In this document: one piece after another, positions 4,097-43,763 of the stretch
Layout: each line of letters starts with the position of its first letter
Position numbering within the stretch: the stretch's first letter is position 1
The notes under the pieces: model-generated
Database searches by the model: none
What the model was told of the DNA's origin: nothing
Seen by the model: only the letters and a program-made list of their open reading frames with translations
From: a phage
Strand: one strand, 5' to 3'
Assembly: GCA_036253495.1 (NCBI GenBank)
Contig: GCA_036253495.1_4125.1
Length of the DNA: 64,000 nt
Program-made: the position numbers and the translations under genes

Positions 4097-4575
4097 ATCC
4101 AGCAGACGTTATTAAATTTTGTAAAATTCTTGAGAAGTATTCTCATAAATTTGTGCACGAAGTACAGATAATGATTGATGGCATTCCCTTTAACTTCGTG
4201 AAAAACAACGACATTATCGCTGTGTTCTGTGGCTCATGGACATTTTGTGAACTCAACTGTCAAGAATCTCAAAATGTTATTGTGAAACGAAACATGATCC
4301 TATCAAGGGAAAGTTCAGTATTCATTGAACCAAGTGGTGAAATCATATACGAGAAAAAGAACGGCGACAGAACTTTAGATGATTTTATGGCTGAATTGAG
4401 CCTTGATAATGAGTTTCATAGAAATGCAGTACTGATACATAGTGCTATGGTGCATGAAACTAATTTAAATTCTATATCAATTAATTTCGGTGTTTATTCT
4501 TATTACAAATTTACATTTGATATGATATTTCAAACACTTAACAAACATCCTATATTCTGGAAATGCAATGAATAA
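4090..4575 (+). CDS. hypothetical protein
   Basis: ORF track; tight packing. Confidence 0.6.
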   Translation: MLNPADVIKFCKILEKYSHKFVHEVQIMIDGIPFNFVKNNDIIAVFCGSWTFCELNCQESQNVIVKRNMILSRESSVFIEPSGEIIYEKKNGDRTLDDFMAELSLDNEFHRNAVLIHSAMVHETNLNSISINFGVYSYYKFTFDMIFQTLNKHPIFWKCNE

Positions 4576-5026
4576 AGACGATTACGAATTACTGAAAAAG
4601 TTAATCCAGTACTGCCTCAATGAACTGGATAATGGTAAAGCTCGAAAATCAGGTTCATGGTTTGATGTAAGCTATCCATCAGACGGCGATGATATGATGA
4701 CATTATGGTCAAATGAAAGATACATTGATTATAGTGTAATGGATAATACTACTATAGATTATGTCAATGACAATGTATGGTATTTCAATACACAGTTAAT
4801 CATTGATATTAAAAGTATAGATTTAAGTACTGAGATTGATGAAGCAACCATATTTCAATTAAGTACTTTGTATTCTGATGAAGTGATATATCCGTTATTA
4901 CTTCTCCTACAGTTGCGAGCCATTGCAGCAGAACGTGGTTTCACATCCATATCATTTGCTCATGACATTGATGTACGAAGAGCTGAAATTACAAAATTAG
5001 TTGAGGGATATGATGGAACACTTTAG
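4568..5026 (+). CDS. hypothetical protein, FQ-motif paralog family
   Basis: ORF track; motif DEATIFQLST. Confidence 0.65.
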   Translation: MNKDDYELLKKLIQYCLNELDNGKARKSGSWFDVSYPSDGDDMMTLWSNERYIDYSVMDNTTIDYVNDNVWYFNTQLIIDIKSIDLSTEIDEATIFQLSTLYSDEVIYPLLLLLQLRAIAAERGFTSISFAHDIDVRRAEITKLVEGYDGTL

Positions 5027-5504
5027 TACTAAAGACTTTGTGGAATTGCATAAAATTCTTGAAGAAAAATATATCAATGAACAATATGGTCGATTCGAAC
5101 TGGCTCCAGATATTATTCTTAAAATACAAAAAGATGGTATGATCCGAGTTGTATTTGAGCAGAAAAGAGGTTTAGACCATGACATTTTCATGCTCTTTGA
5201 TAGCAATAGTCCTATCTATGATGCACCAAGTTTCGATACAAGCACCATTGGTTCACAATCCGCAGTCTTTCATCCAGGAACTACTGTTGTAAAAATCGAT
5301 GGTGTAGATTGCAACATGCGACCTGTATCATTGGATGAAATTGATGAAGTTGAATTTCAGAACAGTACTGTGAATAATTATAGTGCAATGTTCACCTACA
5401 TGTGCTATCTTAACAGTACTTGTTGCAAATTTCTTATGTACACATCGTATGTAAATGAAGATGAAGTACTACACTATGTATTGAAAAAACTAAGAGAATT
5501 ATGA
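5001..5504 (+). CDS. hypothetical protein, FQ-motif paralog family
   Basis: ORF track; motif EVEFQNST. Confidence 0.65.
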   Translation: MRDMMEHFSTKDFVELHKILEEKYINEQYGRFELAPDIILKIQKDGMIRVVFEQKRGLDHDIFMLFDSNSPIYDAPSFDTSTIGSQSAVFHPGTTVVKIDGVDCNMRPVSLDEIDEVEFQNSTVNNYSAMFTYMCYLNSTCCKFLMYTSYVNEDEVLHYVLKKLREL

Positions 5505-5505
5505 T

Positions 5506-6108
5506 ATGATCATTGACATGCCTATTCTTAATAAAATGCTTAACCCTGTCATTACGTTAGCTAAAAGTATTTCTAATAATGAAAAGTTGCATCTCCCATA
5601 CTCTATGTTAACGTATGCAACTGATTTTTACAGGATTGAAATCTCGGCATGTGAACAACGAATTACACTAGCATTCAAACGCCTTGGTGCTGGACTTGCA
5701 AATGATTTTGATATTTCACTGATACTTCATGGTGAATTAGAAGATAGTAAAATTCTGTCCTATGAAAGAATTCTTCGCAGTACAAATGAAATAAAATTAT
5801 TCAAAACATTTTCACATTATAATGGTTCTGATGTTTCATATTATTTTGATAAGGATTCATTTAAGAATATCAAAAGTGTTGAAGTGAAAGATTTCAGCGA
5901 AGAATGGTATTTTCAAAATACATTAATTCATTCTTTACCTTCATATGAAGAAATGAAGATGAACATTGATCTTTATGAAAAATTAAAATCAGAACTGAAA
6001 TGTAATTTTCTATTATCAATGAACTACAAAAAGATCAGTACTGATGTGGTATTGGAAGATGAACTAATGAAACGAATTTGGTCTGCTATACCAGTTATTA
6101 AGGAATAA
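5506..6108 (+). CDS. hypothetical protein, FQ-motif paralog family
   Basis: ORF track; motif EEWYFQNTL. Confidence 0.65.
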   Translation: MIIDMPILNKMLNPVITLAKSISNNEKLHLPYSMLTYATDFYRIEISACEQRITLAFKRLGAGLANDFDISLILHGELEDSKILSYERILRSTNEIKLFKTFSHYNGSDVSYYFDKDSFKNIKSVEVKDFSEEWYFQNTLIHSLPSYEEMKMNIDLYEKLKSELKCNFLLSMNYKKISTDVVLEDELMKRIWSAIPVIKE

Positions 6109-6110
6109 TA

Positions 6111-6650
6111 ATGCACATTGCAACATTATCAAATACTAAAGAATTTGAGCTATGGCCTGAGAAAGTTAACAGCTTAAGACAGCGTTATGTGAATTTCTGC
6201 CGTGGTATCAGGAAAGCCAGTAGAATGTCACATTCACTAAGCATGTCAATTGATGGTTGTGTTATGAATGCAGATAAGAACCGTTTGTACGTTGAATCAT
6301 ACAGTTCGCAAGCTCTGTACATTATGCTTCATGCTGGTACACAAATCCCACAGAATTCGATTGGTTGTTATTCAATTACATGGTCTGGACGAAAGTCTAC
6401 TAAATTATATCCGTGCAAAAGAAACGACCAATCGTTCAGTGTTGATATTAATTACTGTGAGTACACTGAAGAAGAACACTTTCAGCACAGTACTCTTCAT
6501 GATATCATTGAGTACAATGAATGCATCAATGTACTGGATAAATGTTATGATTTAGAACATAATACTGGTATCGTTGTAGTTAATAATTGCTTTTTTGATA
6601 GTGATGTACTTGATACATTAGATTATTTTTTAGAGGGTTACAATGACTAA
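6111..6650 (+). CDS. hypothetical protein, FQ-motif paralog family
   Basis: ORF track; motif EEEHFQHST. Confidence 0.65.
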   Translation: MHIATLSNTKEFELWPEKVNSLRQRYVNFCRGIRKASRMSHSLSMSIDGCVMNADKNRLYVESYSSQALYIMLHAGTQIPQNSIGCYSITWSGRKSTKLYPCKRNDQSFSVDINYCEYTEEEHFQHSTLHDIIEYNECINVLDKCYDLEHNTGIVVVNNCFFDSDVLDTLDYFLEGYND

Positions 6651-12859: not shown

Positions 12860-13699
12860 ATGAAATTAAATTTTATTATCAACTTTAATGTTAAAGAAAC
12901 CGATCATTACGCATCAGAAGATGACCGTGTTGCACCAGCTTCGTCTGAATACATCAGAAATGAAAATGTCCATATGCATGAAAATTATTTCGACTTTGGT
13001 AATTTTATTATCTACCGTGGATTTAAGGATGTTGTATTCCGTTCCAGATATGAAGACTTTGAACATGCACTCATTGATGTACCAGATGAATTAGTATTCC
13101 AGTTCATGTTACTTGGTATTAAAGATTATGACTTTATAGTTTATAACCATTATACTAAGCGTATTATGATTGGTAATGATTCATATGATCTTACTTATTA
13201 TTCCAGTACTGATGAAGATTTAGAAAATATTAAACGCCGTTCTGGTGGTATACGTAATTGTTCATCTTCAAACTCCAGTAGAATGAGTGAAAGGTTTTTT
13301 GATTTCAAAAATAGCAATAATAACGACTGTGAAGACGCGGACAATACTGAACATGTAATGTTTGAAATTGACCACAATAATGGATATAATGACTTCCTTA
13401 ATGTTCTGAAGCCTTATATCAATCATAAATTCATCAAAGATGTAAATCTGGTAGCTCGTGACTTACAGTACAGTGATCGTACTGGTGGTATGCCTGTACC
13501 AATGGATCGTGTATGTACGAACAATACAGTGTTTAATGTACCACGAGAAGATGTTGCATTTGTATTTCTGGCATTTTTGAATTCAGATGCACTATGGGAC
13601 GATAATGAAAGACAATTTAGTTCAAGACATATTGAAATAATTCGTCAAAATACATTACTACTGTGGAAGAAATTTACTGAAAATACCCAGGACAAATAA
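12860..13699 (+). CDS. hypothetical protein (279 aa)
   Basis: ORF track; followed by terminator. Confidence 0.7.
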   Translation: MKLNFIINFNVKETDHYASEDDRVAPASSEYIRNENVHMHENYFDFGNFIIYRGFKDVVFRSRYEDFEHALIDVPDELVFQFMLLGIKDYDFIVYNHYTKRIMIGNDSYDLTYYSSTDEDLENIKRRSGGIRNCSSSNSSRMSERFFDFKNSNNNDCEDADNTEHVMFEIDHNNGYNDFLNVLKPYINHKFIKDVNLVARDLQYSDRTGGMPVPMDRVCTNNTVFNVPREDVAFVFLAFLNSDALWDDNERQFSSRHIEIIRQNTLLLWKKFTENTQDK

Positions 13700-13719
13700 A
13701 TTCTTGGTGATATAATGAT

Positions 13720-13752
13720 GAGTGGCAATATATCTTTGTCACTCTTTTTTTT
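13720..13752 (+). terminator. rho-independent terminator
   Basis: 9 bp stem gagtggcaa/ttgtcactc (one G-U) followed by a run of 8-9 T. Confidence 0.7.
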
Positions 13753-13760
13753 AATCCTGA

Positions 13761-14391
13761 AAGGTTCCATATGGAAATGATTAAGAGCCTAATCCACTCG
13801 AAAATGTAGAGGGTAGATGAGTAGTCCTTTCAGTACGAACAGCAGATGAAACCCGTCAGATGTGGGCATATTATGAACCCCTCACGGCAATGCGGCTGTA
13901 TAAAGAACTCCGATAAGCACACAGAGAGTTCCTAGATAGACATATAAGGATCGCACCTTACCAGATTTGCTAAGGGAGATTTCATTAGAAATTGCGGTCA
14001 ACTATTTGTACAAGATAGTTGCGTCCAAAATTTGGTGAAATCAAATACCAGTACTGTTCATATGGTACTCGTATTATGTGTCGGGATGTTTAAGACCGAC
14101 GACCGTTGCTACAAGAACCGCGATAGAGAGAAACAGAGCAACCCGCTTTCGCCTCGTTAAGAGAATTCGTGATATGAAATATGTGAAGACCACCAGCGTC
14201 AAATTTTAATTCTTTCCCCCAGTGGGGGGATGAAATATGCTCTTCCAAACCTCGTCAATATTAATTAAAACCATTTAGTACTATTAGAATTATTCAGAGC
14301 GTAGCGATGAATTAATTCTACTGATGTTGATTGAGTGCTAACGAAATCAATATCGAGTACATTATTTGATGTTTCCTAAAAAGGAATAATA
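13761..14391. other. ORF-free, GC-enriched intergenic island; candidate structured RNA, origin/packaging signal or decayed gene
   Basis: No ORF of 60 aa or more on either strand in a genome that is otherwise densely coding; local GC visibly higher than flanks (e.g. 14101-14160 about 50 percent); contains the hairpin cccccagtgggggg; only tiny peptide ORFs without credible RBS. Confidence 0.35.
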
Positions 14392-14934
14392 ATGCCTGTA
14401 TTTTCAAAGAACAAAACAACAGAGATCATTTATAAATCAAAAGAATTTGAAGTACTAGAAGAATTTGATAGAGATTCATTTGATGGATATAAAATAGTAA
14501 AAGAAAAAGGAACTATCAATCATATTGTTGAGTACATGGGAGGTGTAGAACTAGCAAAAATCACTTGTAGACCTACAAAAAACCCAGTAATTTTTTCTGT
14601 TCGCTATGGACATTACGGAGAAGAGCGATATAATTCTAATACAGTATCAAGGAAATTCCATGTTGTAGATGGGAAATTAGAAGGGGAATCCAGACAATAT
14701 AGTGTTCTTGGACTTCCTTTGTCAGTGAAGTACTTCCATCAAGGACATGATGTTACTATTGAAATTATGGATTTTATTGGGTTCAATGGTACAGTAGATG
14801 ACTTCAACTTCTATGTATTAGCAGAAGATGAAGCATTCAATATAATGATGAAGTACGGTTCTAGATTTAAATTTTTATATGAGTACAACCTGGACAGTAA
14901 ACTGTTCGATAATATCTTACAGAACTGTCTATAA
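14392..14934 (+). CDS. hypothetical protein
   Basis: ORF track; RBS AAAAAGGAA. Confidence 0.7.
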   Translation: MPVFSKNKTTEIIYKSKEFEVLEEFDRDSFDGYKIVKEKGTINHIVEYMGGVELAKITCRPTKNPVIFSVRYGHYGEERYNSNTVSRKFHVVDGKLEGESRQYSVLGLPLSVKYFHQGHDVTIEIMDFIGFNGTVDDFNFYVLAEDEAFNIMMKYGSRFKFLYEYNLDSKLFDNILQNCL

Positions 14935-24918: not shown

Positions 24919-25851
24919 ATGCCAACTATTACACTAACAGTTGGATTGCCAGGATGTGGTAAAACCACGTGGGCAGTGCAAGAAATTAAAAAAGCAAAGT
25001 CCAAGACTATCAACATCAACCGTGATGATATTCGAGAGTCTATGGCTGGGTCACATGATGCTTATAAATTCACTGATGCGAACGAGAAGTACGTAACTAA
25101 TCAACAGTTCAGTGCAGCAAACGCCGCAGCAGCGAATGGATGGAACATTATTGTGTCCGATACGAACCTGAAACAAGGTTTTCGTGATGAATGGAAACGT
25201 TGGGCTAAAGATAATGGCTACGACTACAAAGAAAAGAACTTCTACGAAGATTTTGTACCGAATGAAGACCGTGGTGCAGATGTTCATGAATTCTTTAAGA
25301 TTAAGGAATTCGTGAAGCTCTGTAAGAAACGCAACCTTCTTCGTGAGCGTTCAGTACAAGATGAAATCATTGACACTATGGCAGATACGTACTATTATAG
25401 TAAGGCGATGCACATTGGTTACTATGGTAATGCACGTGAAGCTGCTATCATTGTTGATATCGACGGTACTCTTGCTCATAAGTGGGGACGTAACCCGTTT
25501 GATGAAAGTACTGTCCTTCAGGATACACCAGATGAAGAAGTAATTCTGTCTGTCATTGCTGAGGCTGTTTTCCATAAGCGTAAGGTAATCGTCATGAGTG
25601 GGCGTACTGAAGGGTGTCGTGCTGATACTGAACAGTGGCTTAAGAATTGGGGCATTCCCTACGATGTATTGTTAATGCGAGCTATCGATGATAAACGTCC
25701 TGATGATGTTGTCAAATTCGAGTTGTATATGAATAACGTTGTTAATCATTACGATGTTAAGAAAGTATTTGATGACAGGGCCGCCGTTGTATTCATGTGG
25801 CGTAAGCTACTAGGCTTGAAAGTATTTCAGGTGGAACCTGGACTATTTTGA
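24919..25851 (+). CDS. pseT: polynucleotide 5-prime kinase / 3-prime phosphatase (T4 Pnk-like)
   Basis: 310 aa; N-terminal P-loop GLPGCGKTT; C-terminal HAD phosphatase motif IVDIDGTLA; colinear with T4 Pnk as recalled. Confidence 0.85.
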   Translation: MPTITLTVGLPGCGKTTWAVQEIKKAKSKTININRDDIRESMAGSHDAYKFTDANEKYVTNQQFSAANAAAANGWNIIVSDTNLKQGFRDEWKRWAKDNGYDYKEKNFYEDFVPNEDRGADVHEFFKIKEFVKLCKKRNLLRERSVQDEIIDTMADTYYYSKAMHIGYYGNAREAAIIVDIDGTLAHKWGRNPFDESTVLQDTPDEEVILSVIAEAVFHKRKVIVMSGRTEGCRADTEQWLKNWGIPYDVLLMRAIDDKRPDDVVKFELYMNNVVNHYDVKKVFDDRAAVVFMWRKLLGLKVFQVEPGLF

Positions 25852-41336: not shown

Positions 41337-43763
41337 TTAAGCACTGATTGTTACAGTTGCAGTATCAGTTTTATTGCCATTCGCAGTAGTCACTGTAATG
41401 ACTACAGTACCTTCTTCTAGAGCAGTTACTAATCCATCATCACTAATAGATACTTTAGTAGGTTCATCTGCACTATAAGTTACTGATTTGTTAGTTGCGT
41501 TAGCTGGAAGAACTTCTGGAACTAGTTGAACTGTTTTAGTACCTGATAGTGAAAGATCAGTGGCTTTAGGTGTTAAACCAACGCTGGATACTGGTACTGG
41601 AATATTAACAGTTACAGCACATTTTGCAGTTTTTGCACCATCAGTAGTTTTTACAGTGATATCAGCAGTACCGTTTGCAACAGCAGTGATTAAACCACTT
41701 GCACTAACAGTTGCGACCCCAGCAGCAGAAGTACTATAAGTTACTGCTTTGTTAGTTGCATTAGCTGGTAGTACAGTTGGTGTTAGTTGTTGAGTTGCAC
41801 CAACAGATGTTAAAGTTGCTGTTGTTGGAGAAACAGAAACACTAGCTACAGGAACTGGGATTGACACAGTAATGACACCTTGACCTGTTTTACCACTTCC
41901 ATCAGCGGCAGTTGCGATAATGTTTGCAGTACCGTTAGTTAACGCAGTTACAACACCAGTACTAGCATCAACTTTCGCTACAGCAGGTGCACTAGAAGAC
42001 CATGTTACAGCTTTATTAGTTGCGTTAGCTGGAAGAACTTCAGCAGCCATTGCTTGAGTTGCGTTAACAGCAGTCAATGTTTTAGTTGCTGGTGTAACAT
42101 TAATAGTTGTTACTGGAACTGGAATTGCTACAGTTACTGCACAAACCGCAGTTTTTGCACCATCAGCGGTTGTTACGGTGATGTTAGCAGTGCCATTTGC
42201 TACAGCAGTTATCAATCCTGAAGTGCTAACAGTTGCTACACCCGCATTAGAAGTACTATAAGTTACTGCTTTATTGGTTGCATTAGTTGGTGCAACCGAT
42301 GGTGTTAGTTGTTGTGTTGCACCAACAGATCTTAAAGTTGCTGTTGTTGGAGAAACAGAAACACCAGTTACTGGTACTGGAATATTAACAGTTACAGCAC
42401 AAACTTTACTAAAGCCACCATCAGCAGTAGTAGCCGTGATATTAGCAGTGCCATTCGCTACCGCAGTGATTAAACCACTTGTACTAACGGTTGCAACACC
42501 AGCAGCAGAAGTTGCGTATGTTACTGCTTTGTTACGAGCATTAGCTGGTAGAACAGTTGCAGTTAATTGCTGTGTTGCACCAACAGAAGTTAATGAAGCG
42601 GTTGCAGGTGTTAGGTTAATACCAGTTACTGGGATCGTCACATCAATAATTGATTGTGCGGTTTTTTCACCATCAATAGTTGTTACGGTAATAGTGGCAG
42701 TACCATTATTAACAGAAGTTACTAAACCGTCATCATCAACTTCTGCTACTGTAGGTGCAGAAGATTCATAACGAACTTCCTGATTTGATGCAGTTCTTGG
42801 TAGTACCGTTGCTGTTAATGGTTCATTTGCACCAATAGTAGTGAATGTATATGTTTCAGGTGTTAACGTAACACCAGTTACTGCTGTTTGAACTTTAATA
42901 GAAGAAGTATCAGTAAATGAACCATCTTCAGATGTTGCAGTAATAGTAACATCACCATTGGATACACCTGTTACCAACCCAGAATCTTTATCAACTGTTG
43001 CAACGGATGGAGCAGATGAAGTCCATATAACTTTCTTGTCTGTTGCTGAGGCCGGAGTAACTTCAGCTAACAATTGTTGAGTTGACCCAACGTTTACAGT
43101 TGCAGATTTAGGAGAAACGGTAACACCAGTAACACCAGTACTGACAACGATAGAACACACATCTGTGAAATCACCATCGTGAGTTGTTACGGTTACATCA
43201 GCATTGCCATTTGCAAGTGCAGTTGCTAGACCTGTTTGAGCATCAACTTCAACGATTGTAGGAGCAGATGAAGAGTAGGTTACTGCCTTGTCTTTTGCAT
43301 TAGATGGAACTACTTGGGCTGATAGTTGTTTTGTTGCACCAACTTTAAGAGATGCATCTTTGGGTGTAATTACAACACCAGTTACGGGGATATCAGCATT
43401 AACATAATCGCGTTTTACGATACGACCATTATTTAATTTAATAACACGACCCATATAAAGCATAGTATACCCCATGCTAATACCATCATCAACATAGATC
43501 ATGAATGAATTGTCTTGAACCATATTAATTGCGTCTGCTGGTTCAACAGAATTTGGAATGTCGATACCACGAGTATCATACCAACGCATGGAAACTTTGT
43601 AATAGATATCACCATTATCATTGATGAGATCATACACGTTACCGGAACGTTGACGGTTAATATATAAAGTTTCCGTTAACACCTTACCATCGATTTTAGC
43701 GACAGAAACTTTAATACCACCAATACCAAAAGGCAATTTACCTTCACTAGATATTGCTTTCAT
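41337..43763 (-). CDS. virion-associated Ig-like (Big_2-type) repeat protein, Hoc-like decoration/adhesin candidate
   Basis: 808 aa; N-terminal ~130 aa domain shared with flanking ORFs, then about seven tandem ~90 aa repeats with VTGV..P.......G.TQQL...V.P.NATNK.VT..SS....ATV...GL.TAV.NGTA.IT pattern; late promoter upstream. Confidence 0.75.
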   Translation of the reverse strand: MKAISSEGKLPFGIGGIKVSVAKIDGKVLTETLYINRQRSGNVYDLINDNGDIYYKVSMRWYDTRGIDIPNSVEPADAINMVQDNSFMIYVDDGISMGYTMLYMGRVIKLNNGRIVKRDYVNADIPVTGVVITPKDASLKVGATKQLSAQVVPSNAKDKAVTYSSSAPTIVEVDAQTGLATALANGNADVTVTTHDGDFTDVCSIVVSTGVTGVTVSPKSATVNVGSTQQLLAEVTPASATDKKVIWTSSAPSVATVDKDSGLVTGVSNGDVTITATSEDGSFTDTSSIKVQTAVTGVTLTPETYTFTTIGANEPLTATVLPRTASNQEVRYESSAPTVAEVDDDGLVTSVNNGTATITVTTIDGEKTAQSIIDVTIPVTGINLTPATASLTSVGATQQLTATVLPANARNKAVTYATSAAGVATVSTSGLITAVANGTANITATTADGGFSKVCAVTVNIPVPVTGVSVSPTTATLRSVGATQQLTPSVAPTNATNKAVTYSTSNAGVATVSTSGLITAVANGTANITVTTADGAKTAVCAVTVAIPVPVTTINVTPATKTLTAVNATQAMAAEVLPANATNKAVTWSSSAPAVAKVDASTGVVTALTNGTANIIATAADGSGKTGQGVITVSIPVPVASVSVSPTTATLTSVGATQQLTPTVLPANATNKAVTYSTSAAGVATVSASGLITAVANGTADITVKTTDGAKTAKCAVTVNIPVPVSSVGLTPKATDLSLSGTKTVQLVPEVLPANATNKSVTYSADEPTKVSISDDGLVTALEEGTVVITVTTANGNKTDTATVTISA
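41500..43300 (-). repeat. in-frame tandem coding repeats (Ig-like domain array)
   Basis: Near-identical DNA segments recur at about 270 nt spacing; these also create the spurious antisense ORF 42274..42771. Confidence 0.6.

Follow-up and report, generated by a model that had tools for sequence, protein, structure and literature searches.

The intergenic gap at positions 13761-14391 of the 64,000-nt stretch of DNA analysed here (the window) holds a conserved, multi-copy, non-coding element equipped with a predicted promoter, and comparison of its homologues shows a + strand that would fold into two domains. The window corresponds to Escherichia phage A4 (ON286972.1; 99.7% identity over the region), a Rak2-like jumbo myovirus of the genus Asteriusvirus with a 355.5-kb genome; window positions equal those of the ON286972 record minus 51383. 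With a probability of about 0.6, we regard the gap as one of four paralogous A4 genes for a stand-alone, trans-acting, multi-pseudoknot RNA, comparable in kind to ROOL and GOLLD. An earlier note on this DNA, made by eye, had listed a structured non-coding RNA among several candidates for the gap, and this candidate now has strong support from sequence conservation, from base changes that compensate one another, from the strand specificity of the G-U pairs and from a dedicated predicted promoter. The multi-copy state of the element went unnoticed there.

The conserved element spans about 13753-14262 of the + strand, about 480-510 nt, and all of its features described below lie on that strand. 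The earlier note had delimited it as 13761-14391; it begins about 10 nt further left and ends about 130 nt before 14391. A variable domain, which helix P8 closes, links the two conserved domains; downstream of these come a G+C-rich hairpin and a conserved tail.

Compensatory changes and the folding strand

The structure was drawn from co-varying alignment columns and then counted, and pairings in which the partner was slid by 1-3 columns served as the control. The alignments display invariant blocks, helix sides that change together, and indels restricted to hairpin tips. The 5' domain (13786-13977) was compared across 65 distinct sequences, including prophage and metagenome copies. It comprises P2 (13789-99/13809-16), P3 (13821-25/13832-36), P4 (13839-43/13895-99), P5 (13853-56/13884-87), P6 (13905-10/13926-31), P7 (13945-49/13956-60) and a long-range pairing of 3 bp (13890-92/13941-43). 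Paired cells amount to 95.4%, against 29-39% in the slid registers, and 26 of the 35 pairs change on both sides. The long-range pairing is paired in 100% of cases, its AUG:CAU switching to ACA:UGU or AUA:UAU. In P8 (13978-83/14037-42), two-sided changes are seen at three stacked pairs, 13978:14042 (7 of the 65 sequences), 13979:14041 (17) and 13980:14040 (28).

The 3' core domain (14043-14203), represented by 45 distinct sequences, has 87.2% of cells paired against 40-48% in the slid registers, and 35 of its 55 pairs change on both sides, bringing the sum for both domains to 61 of 90; in neither domain did any of 500 shuffles attain the covariation score of the real alignment. Helices P9 (14044-54/14065-75), P10 (14080-84/14096-100), P12 (14119-23/14167-71), P13 (14126-30/14146-50) and P14 (14152-55/14161-64) are 90-100% paired, and pseudoknot P11 (14105-09/14138-42) is paired in 100%. 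A candidate helix at 14186-90/14196-200 was dropped at 35% paired. Altogether, compensatory change supports at least 14 predicted helices, three of them pseudoknotted or long-range.

The pairing of the P9 loop (14057-63) with 14172-78 differs between paralogues. It covers 7 bp, is paired in 99.7% of cases, and shows two-sided changes at every one of its pairs. The loop and its partner read UUCAUAU and AUAUGAA in the window copy (copy 1 of A4), AUCGAAU and AUUCGAU in copy 2, AUUGUAU and AUACAAU in copy 3, and AUUGCAU and AUGCAAU in copy 4. This paralogue-specific contact could be made within one molecule or between molecules.

Among all counted pairs, G-U combinations number 167 against 48 A-C combinations. 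The excess of G-U identifies the + strand as the folding strand and speaks against a signal in double-stranded DNA. Protein coding was considered as well; the earlier note had named a conserved reading frame among the observations that would contradict it. No frame is conserved across the homologues: no open reading frame (ORF) of at least 25 amino acids is common to more than 21 of the 65, and the indels do not come in threes, with 170 of 1166 (15%) divisible by three.

Two direct CGUCA motifs, at 14197-14201 and 14252-14256 and with counterparts in every member of the family, vary in parallel rather than complementarily. Both sites read CGACA in a Serratia prophage (L084) and CUUCA in Klebsiella phage K64-1 (L221 845-849, 915-919), and the bases beside both sites agree in most of the 80 distinct sequences tabulated. 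No complement of the motif (UGACG) was found within the RNA. The parallel change and the missing internal complement suggest that one external partner reads both sites.

Leader, central domain and 3' end

The element opens with a variable 5' leader (13753-13785), in which AAUCCUG is followed by a small hairpin (13763-13778) whose sequence varies between copies and whose self-complementarity is kept. Some prophage copies have no leader, and their -10 box lies about 10 nt before AACCUGAUCC. The central variable domain (13978-14042) holds a recurrent module, GUAC..AUAG..CGUCCAAAAUU; several copies (A4 copy 3, L013, L022) have a reduced version of the domain or have lost it. The module, with the form GUAC..AUAG..(U/A)NCGUC(C/U)AAAAUU (window 14005-14033), recurs as an insertion in P14 of L003, L013, L022 and others, as if it were a portable structural or binding element that had been inserted twice.

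Downstream of the 3' core lies the G+C-rich CCCC/GGGG hairpin (14212-14232), with no U run after it. It includes cccccagtgggggg at 14216-14229, which the earlier note had singled out as an inverted repeat and which proves to form the apex of a hairpin that every homologue retains. The stem measures 8-11 bp in most copies, and its inner pairs are C-G in 42 of 45 sequences and U-G in the others. The conserved 3' tail (14233-14262; GAUGAAAU..CAAAYCYCGUCAAU) carries the second CGUCA motif, and its final 13 columns are almost invariant across the 45 sequences. Conservation falls after 14262, and the AT-rich, weakly conserved spacer with local hairpins at 14263-14391, which continues as far as the ribosome-binding site of the next gene (14392), is probably outside the conserved RNA. 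Long stretches of the element are invariant and unpaired (AGAGAGAAACAG, GAAACCCGU, GAUAGACAUAU, UAAGGGAG).

Paralogues in Rak2-like jumbo phages

A blastn search of 50,697 phage records matched the stretch in 62, all of them Rak2-like jumbo phages and each with 4-5 matching places. The comparison with related phages that the earlier note had proposed finds the stretch conserved, at 85-88% identity within Asteriusvirus, where the flanking genes show about 81%, and at 66-73% in other genera. The latter include Cronobacter phage GAP32, Pectobacterium phage CBB, Serratia phage BF, Yersinia phage fHe-Yen9-04 and Klebsiella phage fENko-Kae01, and likewise Erwinia, Xanthomonas and Salmonella phages. 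Copies number 4-5 per genome in GAP32, CBB, BF, fHe-Yen9-04, XbC2 and K64-1.

A covariance model of the 3' core (R1; 158 positions, 27 pairs), with which the window copy scores 127 bits and K64-1 114 bits, recovers exactly four copies in A4. They are found at 65.1, 125.8, 205.6 and 321.0 kb of the record. Each occupies an intergenic gap (650-900 bp) and is oriented along the + strand, and identity among them is 73-79%. Copy 3 is located between two minus-strand genes (endonuclease VII and A4_1), which marks it as a separate, stand-alone unit. Weak R1 matches at 41746-42427 of the window fall inside an ORF of 808 amino acids and were set aside as chance.

In IMG/VR, a pattern specific to Asteriusvirus gave no matches, a relaxed pattern gave 44 loci, and a second pattern added 14 more. 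The source of every one of these loci is a contig of 350-380 kb or a piece of one, and the large contigs carry 3-5 copies each, all on one strand within a contig. In clustering, the paralogue groups span genera, with CBB, GAP32 and BF, for example, in one cluster. The sharing of paralogue groups between genera indicates that the duplication is older than those genera and that each copy has been retained, and the synteny of orthologues indicates that the element has not been recently mobile.

Copies in prophages, islands and metagenomes

Outside jumbo phages, R1 matched nine bacterial genome records (121-128 bits) and 72 metagenome loci, the scores of the two sets together covering 92-162 bits. 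The bacterial records include a complete Serratia fonticola chromosome and large contigs of Citrobacter amalonaticus, Enterobacter chinensis and Silvania. Bacterial copies are single, comprise the whole RNA with both domains, and lie in integrated elements. The typical prophage order is a large serine recombinase, the RNA on the same strand, a divergent CI/S24 repressor and a small ORF in what would be, from its size and position, the place of cro; further shared early-region ORFs lie beyond it. In Serratia fonticola the RNA follows a recombinase and a ParB/RepB-like gene at the edge of an element that adjoins rof and tilS. Two tandem rof genes with 97.7% protein identity are seen at that edge (L089 4775-5038, 5227-5490), possibly a duplication made by integration. 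Among 5426 complete Escherichia coli genomes two carry the RNA; one of them, strain LR-29-1, has it in a roughly 10-kb island next to ffs. No plasmid in PLSDB carries it, and no protein neighbour common to the jumbo-phage and prophage settings was found.

Predicted promoter and terminator-like sites

The best promoter-like site in a scan of the region lies at 13689-13716 and combines a -35-like AGGACA, a 16-nt spacer and a TG-extended -10 box, TGATATAAT (13708-13716), with 10 of 12 matches in addition to the TG. An upstream layout of TG(A/G)(A/G)AC(A/G), about 17 nt and TGnTATAAT stands before nearly all jumbo-phage and prophage copies, and transcription from this predicted promoter would be expected. 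The layout matches the 'divergent RpoD-like' promoters with a TGAAACG -35 box which Buttimer et al. described in CBB and GAP32, mostly before DNA-synthesis genes (PMC5259590). The -35-like box also accompanies the RNA into enterobacterial prophages (e.g. L008, L081, L089).

The strong terminator placed at 13720-13752 by the earlier note is indeed there, as a 9-bp stem (13720-13744) followed by T8 up to 13752, and it closes the transcript of the upstream gene. It lies between the promoter, at a distance of about 5 nt, and the body of the RNA. A hairpin and U run of this kind are kept with differing stem sequences in the orthologues of the window paralogue (121Q, GAP32, fHe-Yen9-04, XbC2, L032), including those in four other genera, and are absent from the other paralogues. 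Most paralogues carry a terminator-like hairpin with a U run within the element, upstream of the CCCC/GGGG hairpin and the tail (L003 11150-11185, L004 41150-41185 and many IMG/VR copies). This internal hairpin is absent from the window copy and from copy 4. After the RNA of the window copy no terminator-like site was found before the gene at 14392, and this copy may be co-transcribed with that gene.

The gap and its surroundings

The gap lies between A4_403 (12860-13699 of the window) on the left and A4_404 (14392-14934) on the right, and the depositors' A4 record has nothing annotated between the two. The ORF listing for both strands contains no frame of at least 60 amino acids between 13699 and 14392, in agreement with what the earlier note had said of 13761-14391; the longest ORFs in the gap encode 52 (- strand) and 43 (+ strand) amino acids. 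Its longest stop-free stretch in any frame, 70 codons, falls in the lowest 1% of the 631-nt segments of this DNA, for which the median is 145.

The description of the gap as GC-enriched was right in direction and too strong in degree. The G+C content (GC) of 13761-14391 is 39.3%, compared with 34.5% for the window as a whole, and ranks no higher than the 91st percentile. In the conserved core (13783-14262) it rises to 42.7%, and 200-nt windows peak at 44%, the values near 50% mentioned in the earlier note being confined to stretches of about 60 nt. Coding stretches near 25000 and 41500 of the window have GC equal to or above that of the gap. The contrast is genuine and modest. No tRNA cloverleaf had been recognised by eye, and ARAGORN likewise finds no tRNA or tmRNA genes in the window.

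The flanking proteins belong to no Pfam family, and the upstream ORFs of 278 and 279 amino acids are not paralogues. In several deposited records, for example those of SHEFM2K, E9.1, JP4, WPEC3, WPEC5 and fHe-Yen9-04, two to six small 'hypothetical proteins' are annotated over the RNA locus, in frames that are not conserved. Elsewhere in the A4 record, about 2 kb at 4139-6138 are without an annotated gene amid dense small ORFs, and R1 has no match there. The large terminase subunit (record 230273-232584) is represented by two ORFs, A4_29 and A4_30, with a 276-bp gap between them, which could be an interruption of the intron or intein type, or a frameshift.

Comparison with known RNAs

A search of the whole window with Rfam 15 at gathering thresholds, one of the checks proposed in the earlier note, gave no matches. 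At E-values up to 10, the window copy and ten homologous loci gave scattered chance matches, none of them common. The Rfam 15 models exclude ROOL, GOLLD, OLE, HEARO, STAXI, RNase P, tmRNA and 6S, and likewise any recognisable group I or II intron. Motifs resembling RNase P were rejected with no model match. A hammerhead core spotted by eye (GAUGAG..CGAA) was also rejected, its essential positions varying to GUUGAG and from GAA to GAU or GCA. The jumbo-phage reviews and genome papers searched contain no description of the RNA. The family matched nothing in Rfam 15 or in the literature searched, and is new relative to both.

The element has several of the properties that mark large ornate phage RNAs: it exceeds 400 nt, has many helices and pseudoknots with covariation, and resides in phages and prophages with no conserved partner protein gene. 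It resembles ROOL (RF03087) and GOLLD (RF01998) in its length of over 450 nt, many helices and pseudoknots, phage or prophage location and lack of an associated protein gene. It differs from them in having no sequence or structure match, and in its Enterobacterales hosts, as opposed to Firmicutes or lake metagenomes. It differs further in that the A4 copies (65, 126, 206 and 321 kb) stand apart from the tRNAs (record 304-307 kb), and in the presence of 4-5 diverged paralogues per genome. OLE RNA (RF01071, about 600 nt) is similarly ornate and conserved, with long invariant unpaired stretches. OLE is chromosomal, occurs in extremophilic Firmicutes and has partner proteins, whereas the RNA described here lies on mobile elements, has no conserved neighbour and is not matched by the OLE model.

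RNA sequencing of the phage PA5oct, a jumbo phage distantly related to the Rak2 group, revealed long non-coding RNAs from four ORF-free loci (ncRNA001-004; 236-619 nt), all transcribed and two highly expressed (PMC7318152). They are similar to the present element in size and in being non-coding; homology was rejected, with no R1 match at the four loci (L203, L219, L220), and blastn matched no Pseudomonas phage.

A proposed trans-acting RNA and its alternatives

The reading we favour, a trans-acting RNA, is supported by the independence of the element from its neighbours, by its occurrence in lytic, temperate and island contexts, and by the long invariant unpaired segments. Host RNA polymerase, perhaps aided by a phage activator, would transcribe the RNA, which would then act in trans as a folded molecule. 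The invariant unpaired stretches and the co-varying CGUCA motifs point to a compact tertiary fold, which might bind a partner or self-assemble, as ROOL and GOLLD do; both are reported to form homo-oligomers (PMC12286853).

Several observations weigh against this reading. The folding energy of the single sequence is unexceptional (z = -1.8 for the + strand and -0.95 for the - strand), a measure that is uninformative here. The homologues were gathered with patterns taken from the family itself and are related by descent, which limits their diversity, and pattern scans reach close relatives only. As the sequences are kin and were collected by pattern, the slid-register control and the independent pair types are the more reliable evidence; the shuffle control carries this caveat, and the slid-register control is independent of it. 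A single mature RNA would not be expected to have an internal terminator-like hairpin ahead of its conserved 3' end, as many paralogues do. The promoter-proximal hairpin of the window copy, with no later terminator, could mean that this copy is poorly expressed or belongs to a longer mRNA. The proposed ends of the RNA are deduced from sequence conservation.

The main rival is a structured origin-primer RNA, the one form in which the replication origin suggested in the earlier note is retained, and we consider it unlikely. Each copy would be one of 4-5 origins of a T4-like genome, and its transcript would fold, hybridise persistently and prime the leading strand. ColE1 RNA II and the T4 oriF, oriG and oriE transcripts form template hybrids and prime leading-strand synthesis in this way, and they share with the element a non-coding length of a few hundred nucleotides, several copies per T4-type genome and a G-rich segment near the 3' end; a promoter of their own, predicted in the element, would be a further likeness. 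The 4-5 dispersed, co-oriented copies per jumbo genome agree with such a role. So does the predicted promoter of this non-coding element, which would here be of the middle type and belongs to the TGAAACG class, placed in CBB mostly before DNA-synthesis genes (PMC5259590). The size is close to that of RNA II (about 550 nt), neither the window copy nor copy 4 has a terminator downstream of the RNA, and an invariant run of G5-6 near the 3' end is followed by AT-rich DNA. Against it stands the fold, which is far more elaborate than in RNA II or the T4 transcripts: origin transcripts of the T4 type can do without a conserved structure, whereas pseudoknots and some 100 invariant bases outside helices have been retained here. 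Many copies, moreover, contain an internal terminator-like hairpin. Prophage copies lie beside integrase and repressor genes and not among replication genes, and the element also resides in the island of about 10 kb. Unlike ColE1 RNA II, the element was absent from the plasmids searched (PLSDB), and no iterons or initiator gene were seen nearby.

A cis-acting 5' leader, similar to a riboswitch or an attenuator and controlling the genes downstream of each copy, is distinctly less probable than a primer. Genes on the + strand follow the window copy and copies 2 and 4, with no terminator in between in the window copy and copy 4 and a possibly regulated one in copy 2, and the promoter-proximal terminator-like hairpin of the window copy could serve as an attenuator. 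The genes that lie downstream are, however, not related from one copy or context to another; copy 3 points towards genes of the minus strand, and in prophages the RNA and the repressor gene are convergent. At 500 nt with two pseudoknotted domains, the element is also far larger than the familiar cis-regulators, of which we know none of such size and complexity.

We think it very improbable that the RNA is a free-standing or mobile ribozyme akin to self-splicing introns. What invites the comparison is the order of strands in the 5' domain (13839-13960), where helix, inner hairpin, knot strand, helix return, hairpin and knot return follow one another as in the P3-P7 pseudoknot of group I introns, together with A-rich conserved joining segments. 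The joining segment UAGAUAGA recalls the group I 'S' element. The distribution over phages and mobile elements and the HNH endonuclease genes in the neighbourhood would also suit a ribozyme. Yet Rfam yields no group I or II match even at E = 10, and the helix in the place of P7 has only 3 bp. The counterpart of the P7 G-C pair that forms the guanosine site, 13892:13941, is G-C in 51 of 65 sequences and A-U in the other 14. There are no exons: every copy is intergenic and has a promoter of its own. Some prophage copies lack the leader in which P1 could form, and the syntenic orthologues indicate no recent mobility. The likeness to group I introns is a resemblance only.

The notion of a decayed or frameshifted protein gene, or of an element acting as DNA (a packaging signal or protein-binding repeat), is already contradicted and hardly credible: some depositors do annotate small ORFs at the locus, but none is shared and the indels do not come in threes, the compensatory changes allow G-U and not A-C as in a single folded strand, and conservation exceeds that of the flanking genes. 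Purifying selection acts on all four paralogues and on the orthologues found in other genera, and no ORF is conserved, which refutes the decayed or recently acquired remnant of the earlier note; its packaging signal is unlikely with 4-5 dispersed copies that are also present in prophages.

Implications

The occurrence of the RNA in lytic jumbo phages, in prophages and in a small island, with no shared protein neighbour, points to a benefit general to mobile elements. A bolder version of the trans-acting RNA, possible and at present doubtful, is that the family represents a new class of large functional RNA, be it a ribozyme or an RNA machine that assembles itself, which mobile elements of Enterobacterales deploy against the host or upon it. 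The 4-5 paralogues would then be specialised, each with its private 7-bp pairing, and the twin CGUCA motifs would be docking or processing sites for one partner.

To our knowledge, bacterial and phage RNAs of over 400 nt with elaborate conserved folds are few: rRNAs, RNase P, group I and II introns, OLE, GOLLD, ROOL, HEARO and raiA. Several of these have turned out to be catalysts or unusual assemblies. The presence of this family corrects the annotation of several deposited genomes, in which spurious 'hypothetical proteins' lie over its loci. Unlike most orphan large RNAs, it is carried by cultured E. coli phages (A4, 121Q, PBECO4, phAPEC6), which makes experiments feasible at once. The presence of several copies in jumbo phages and the location next to integrase and repressor genes in prophages provide handles on its function.

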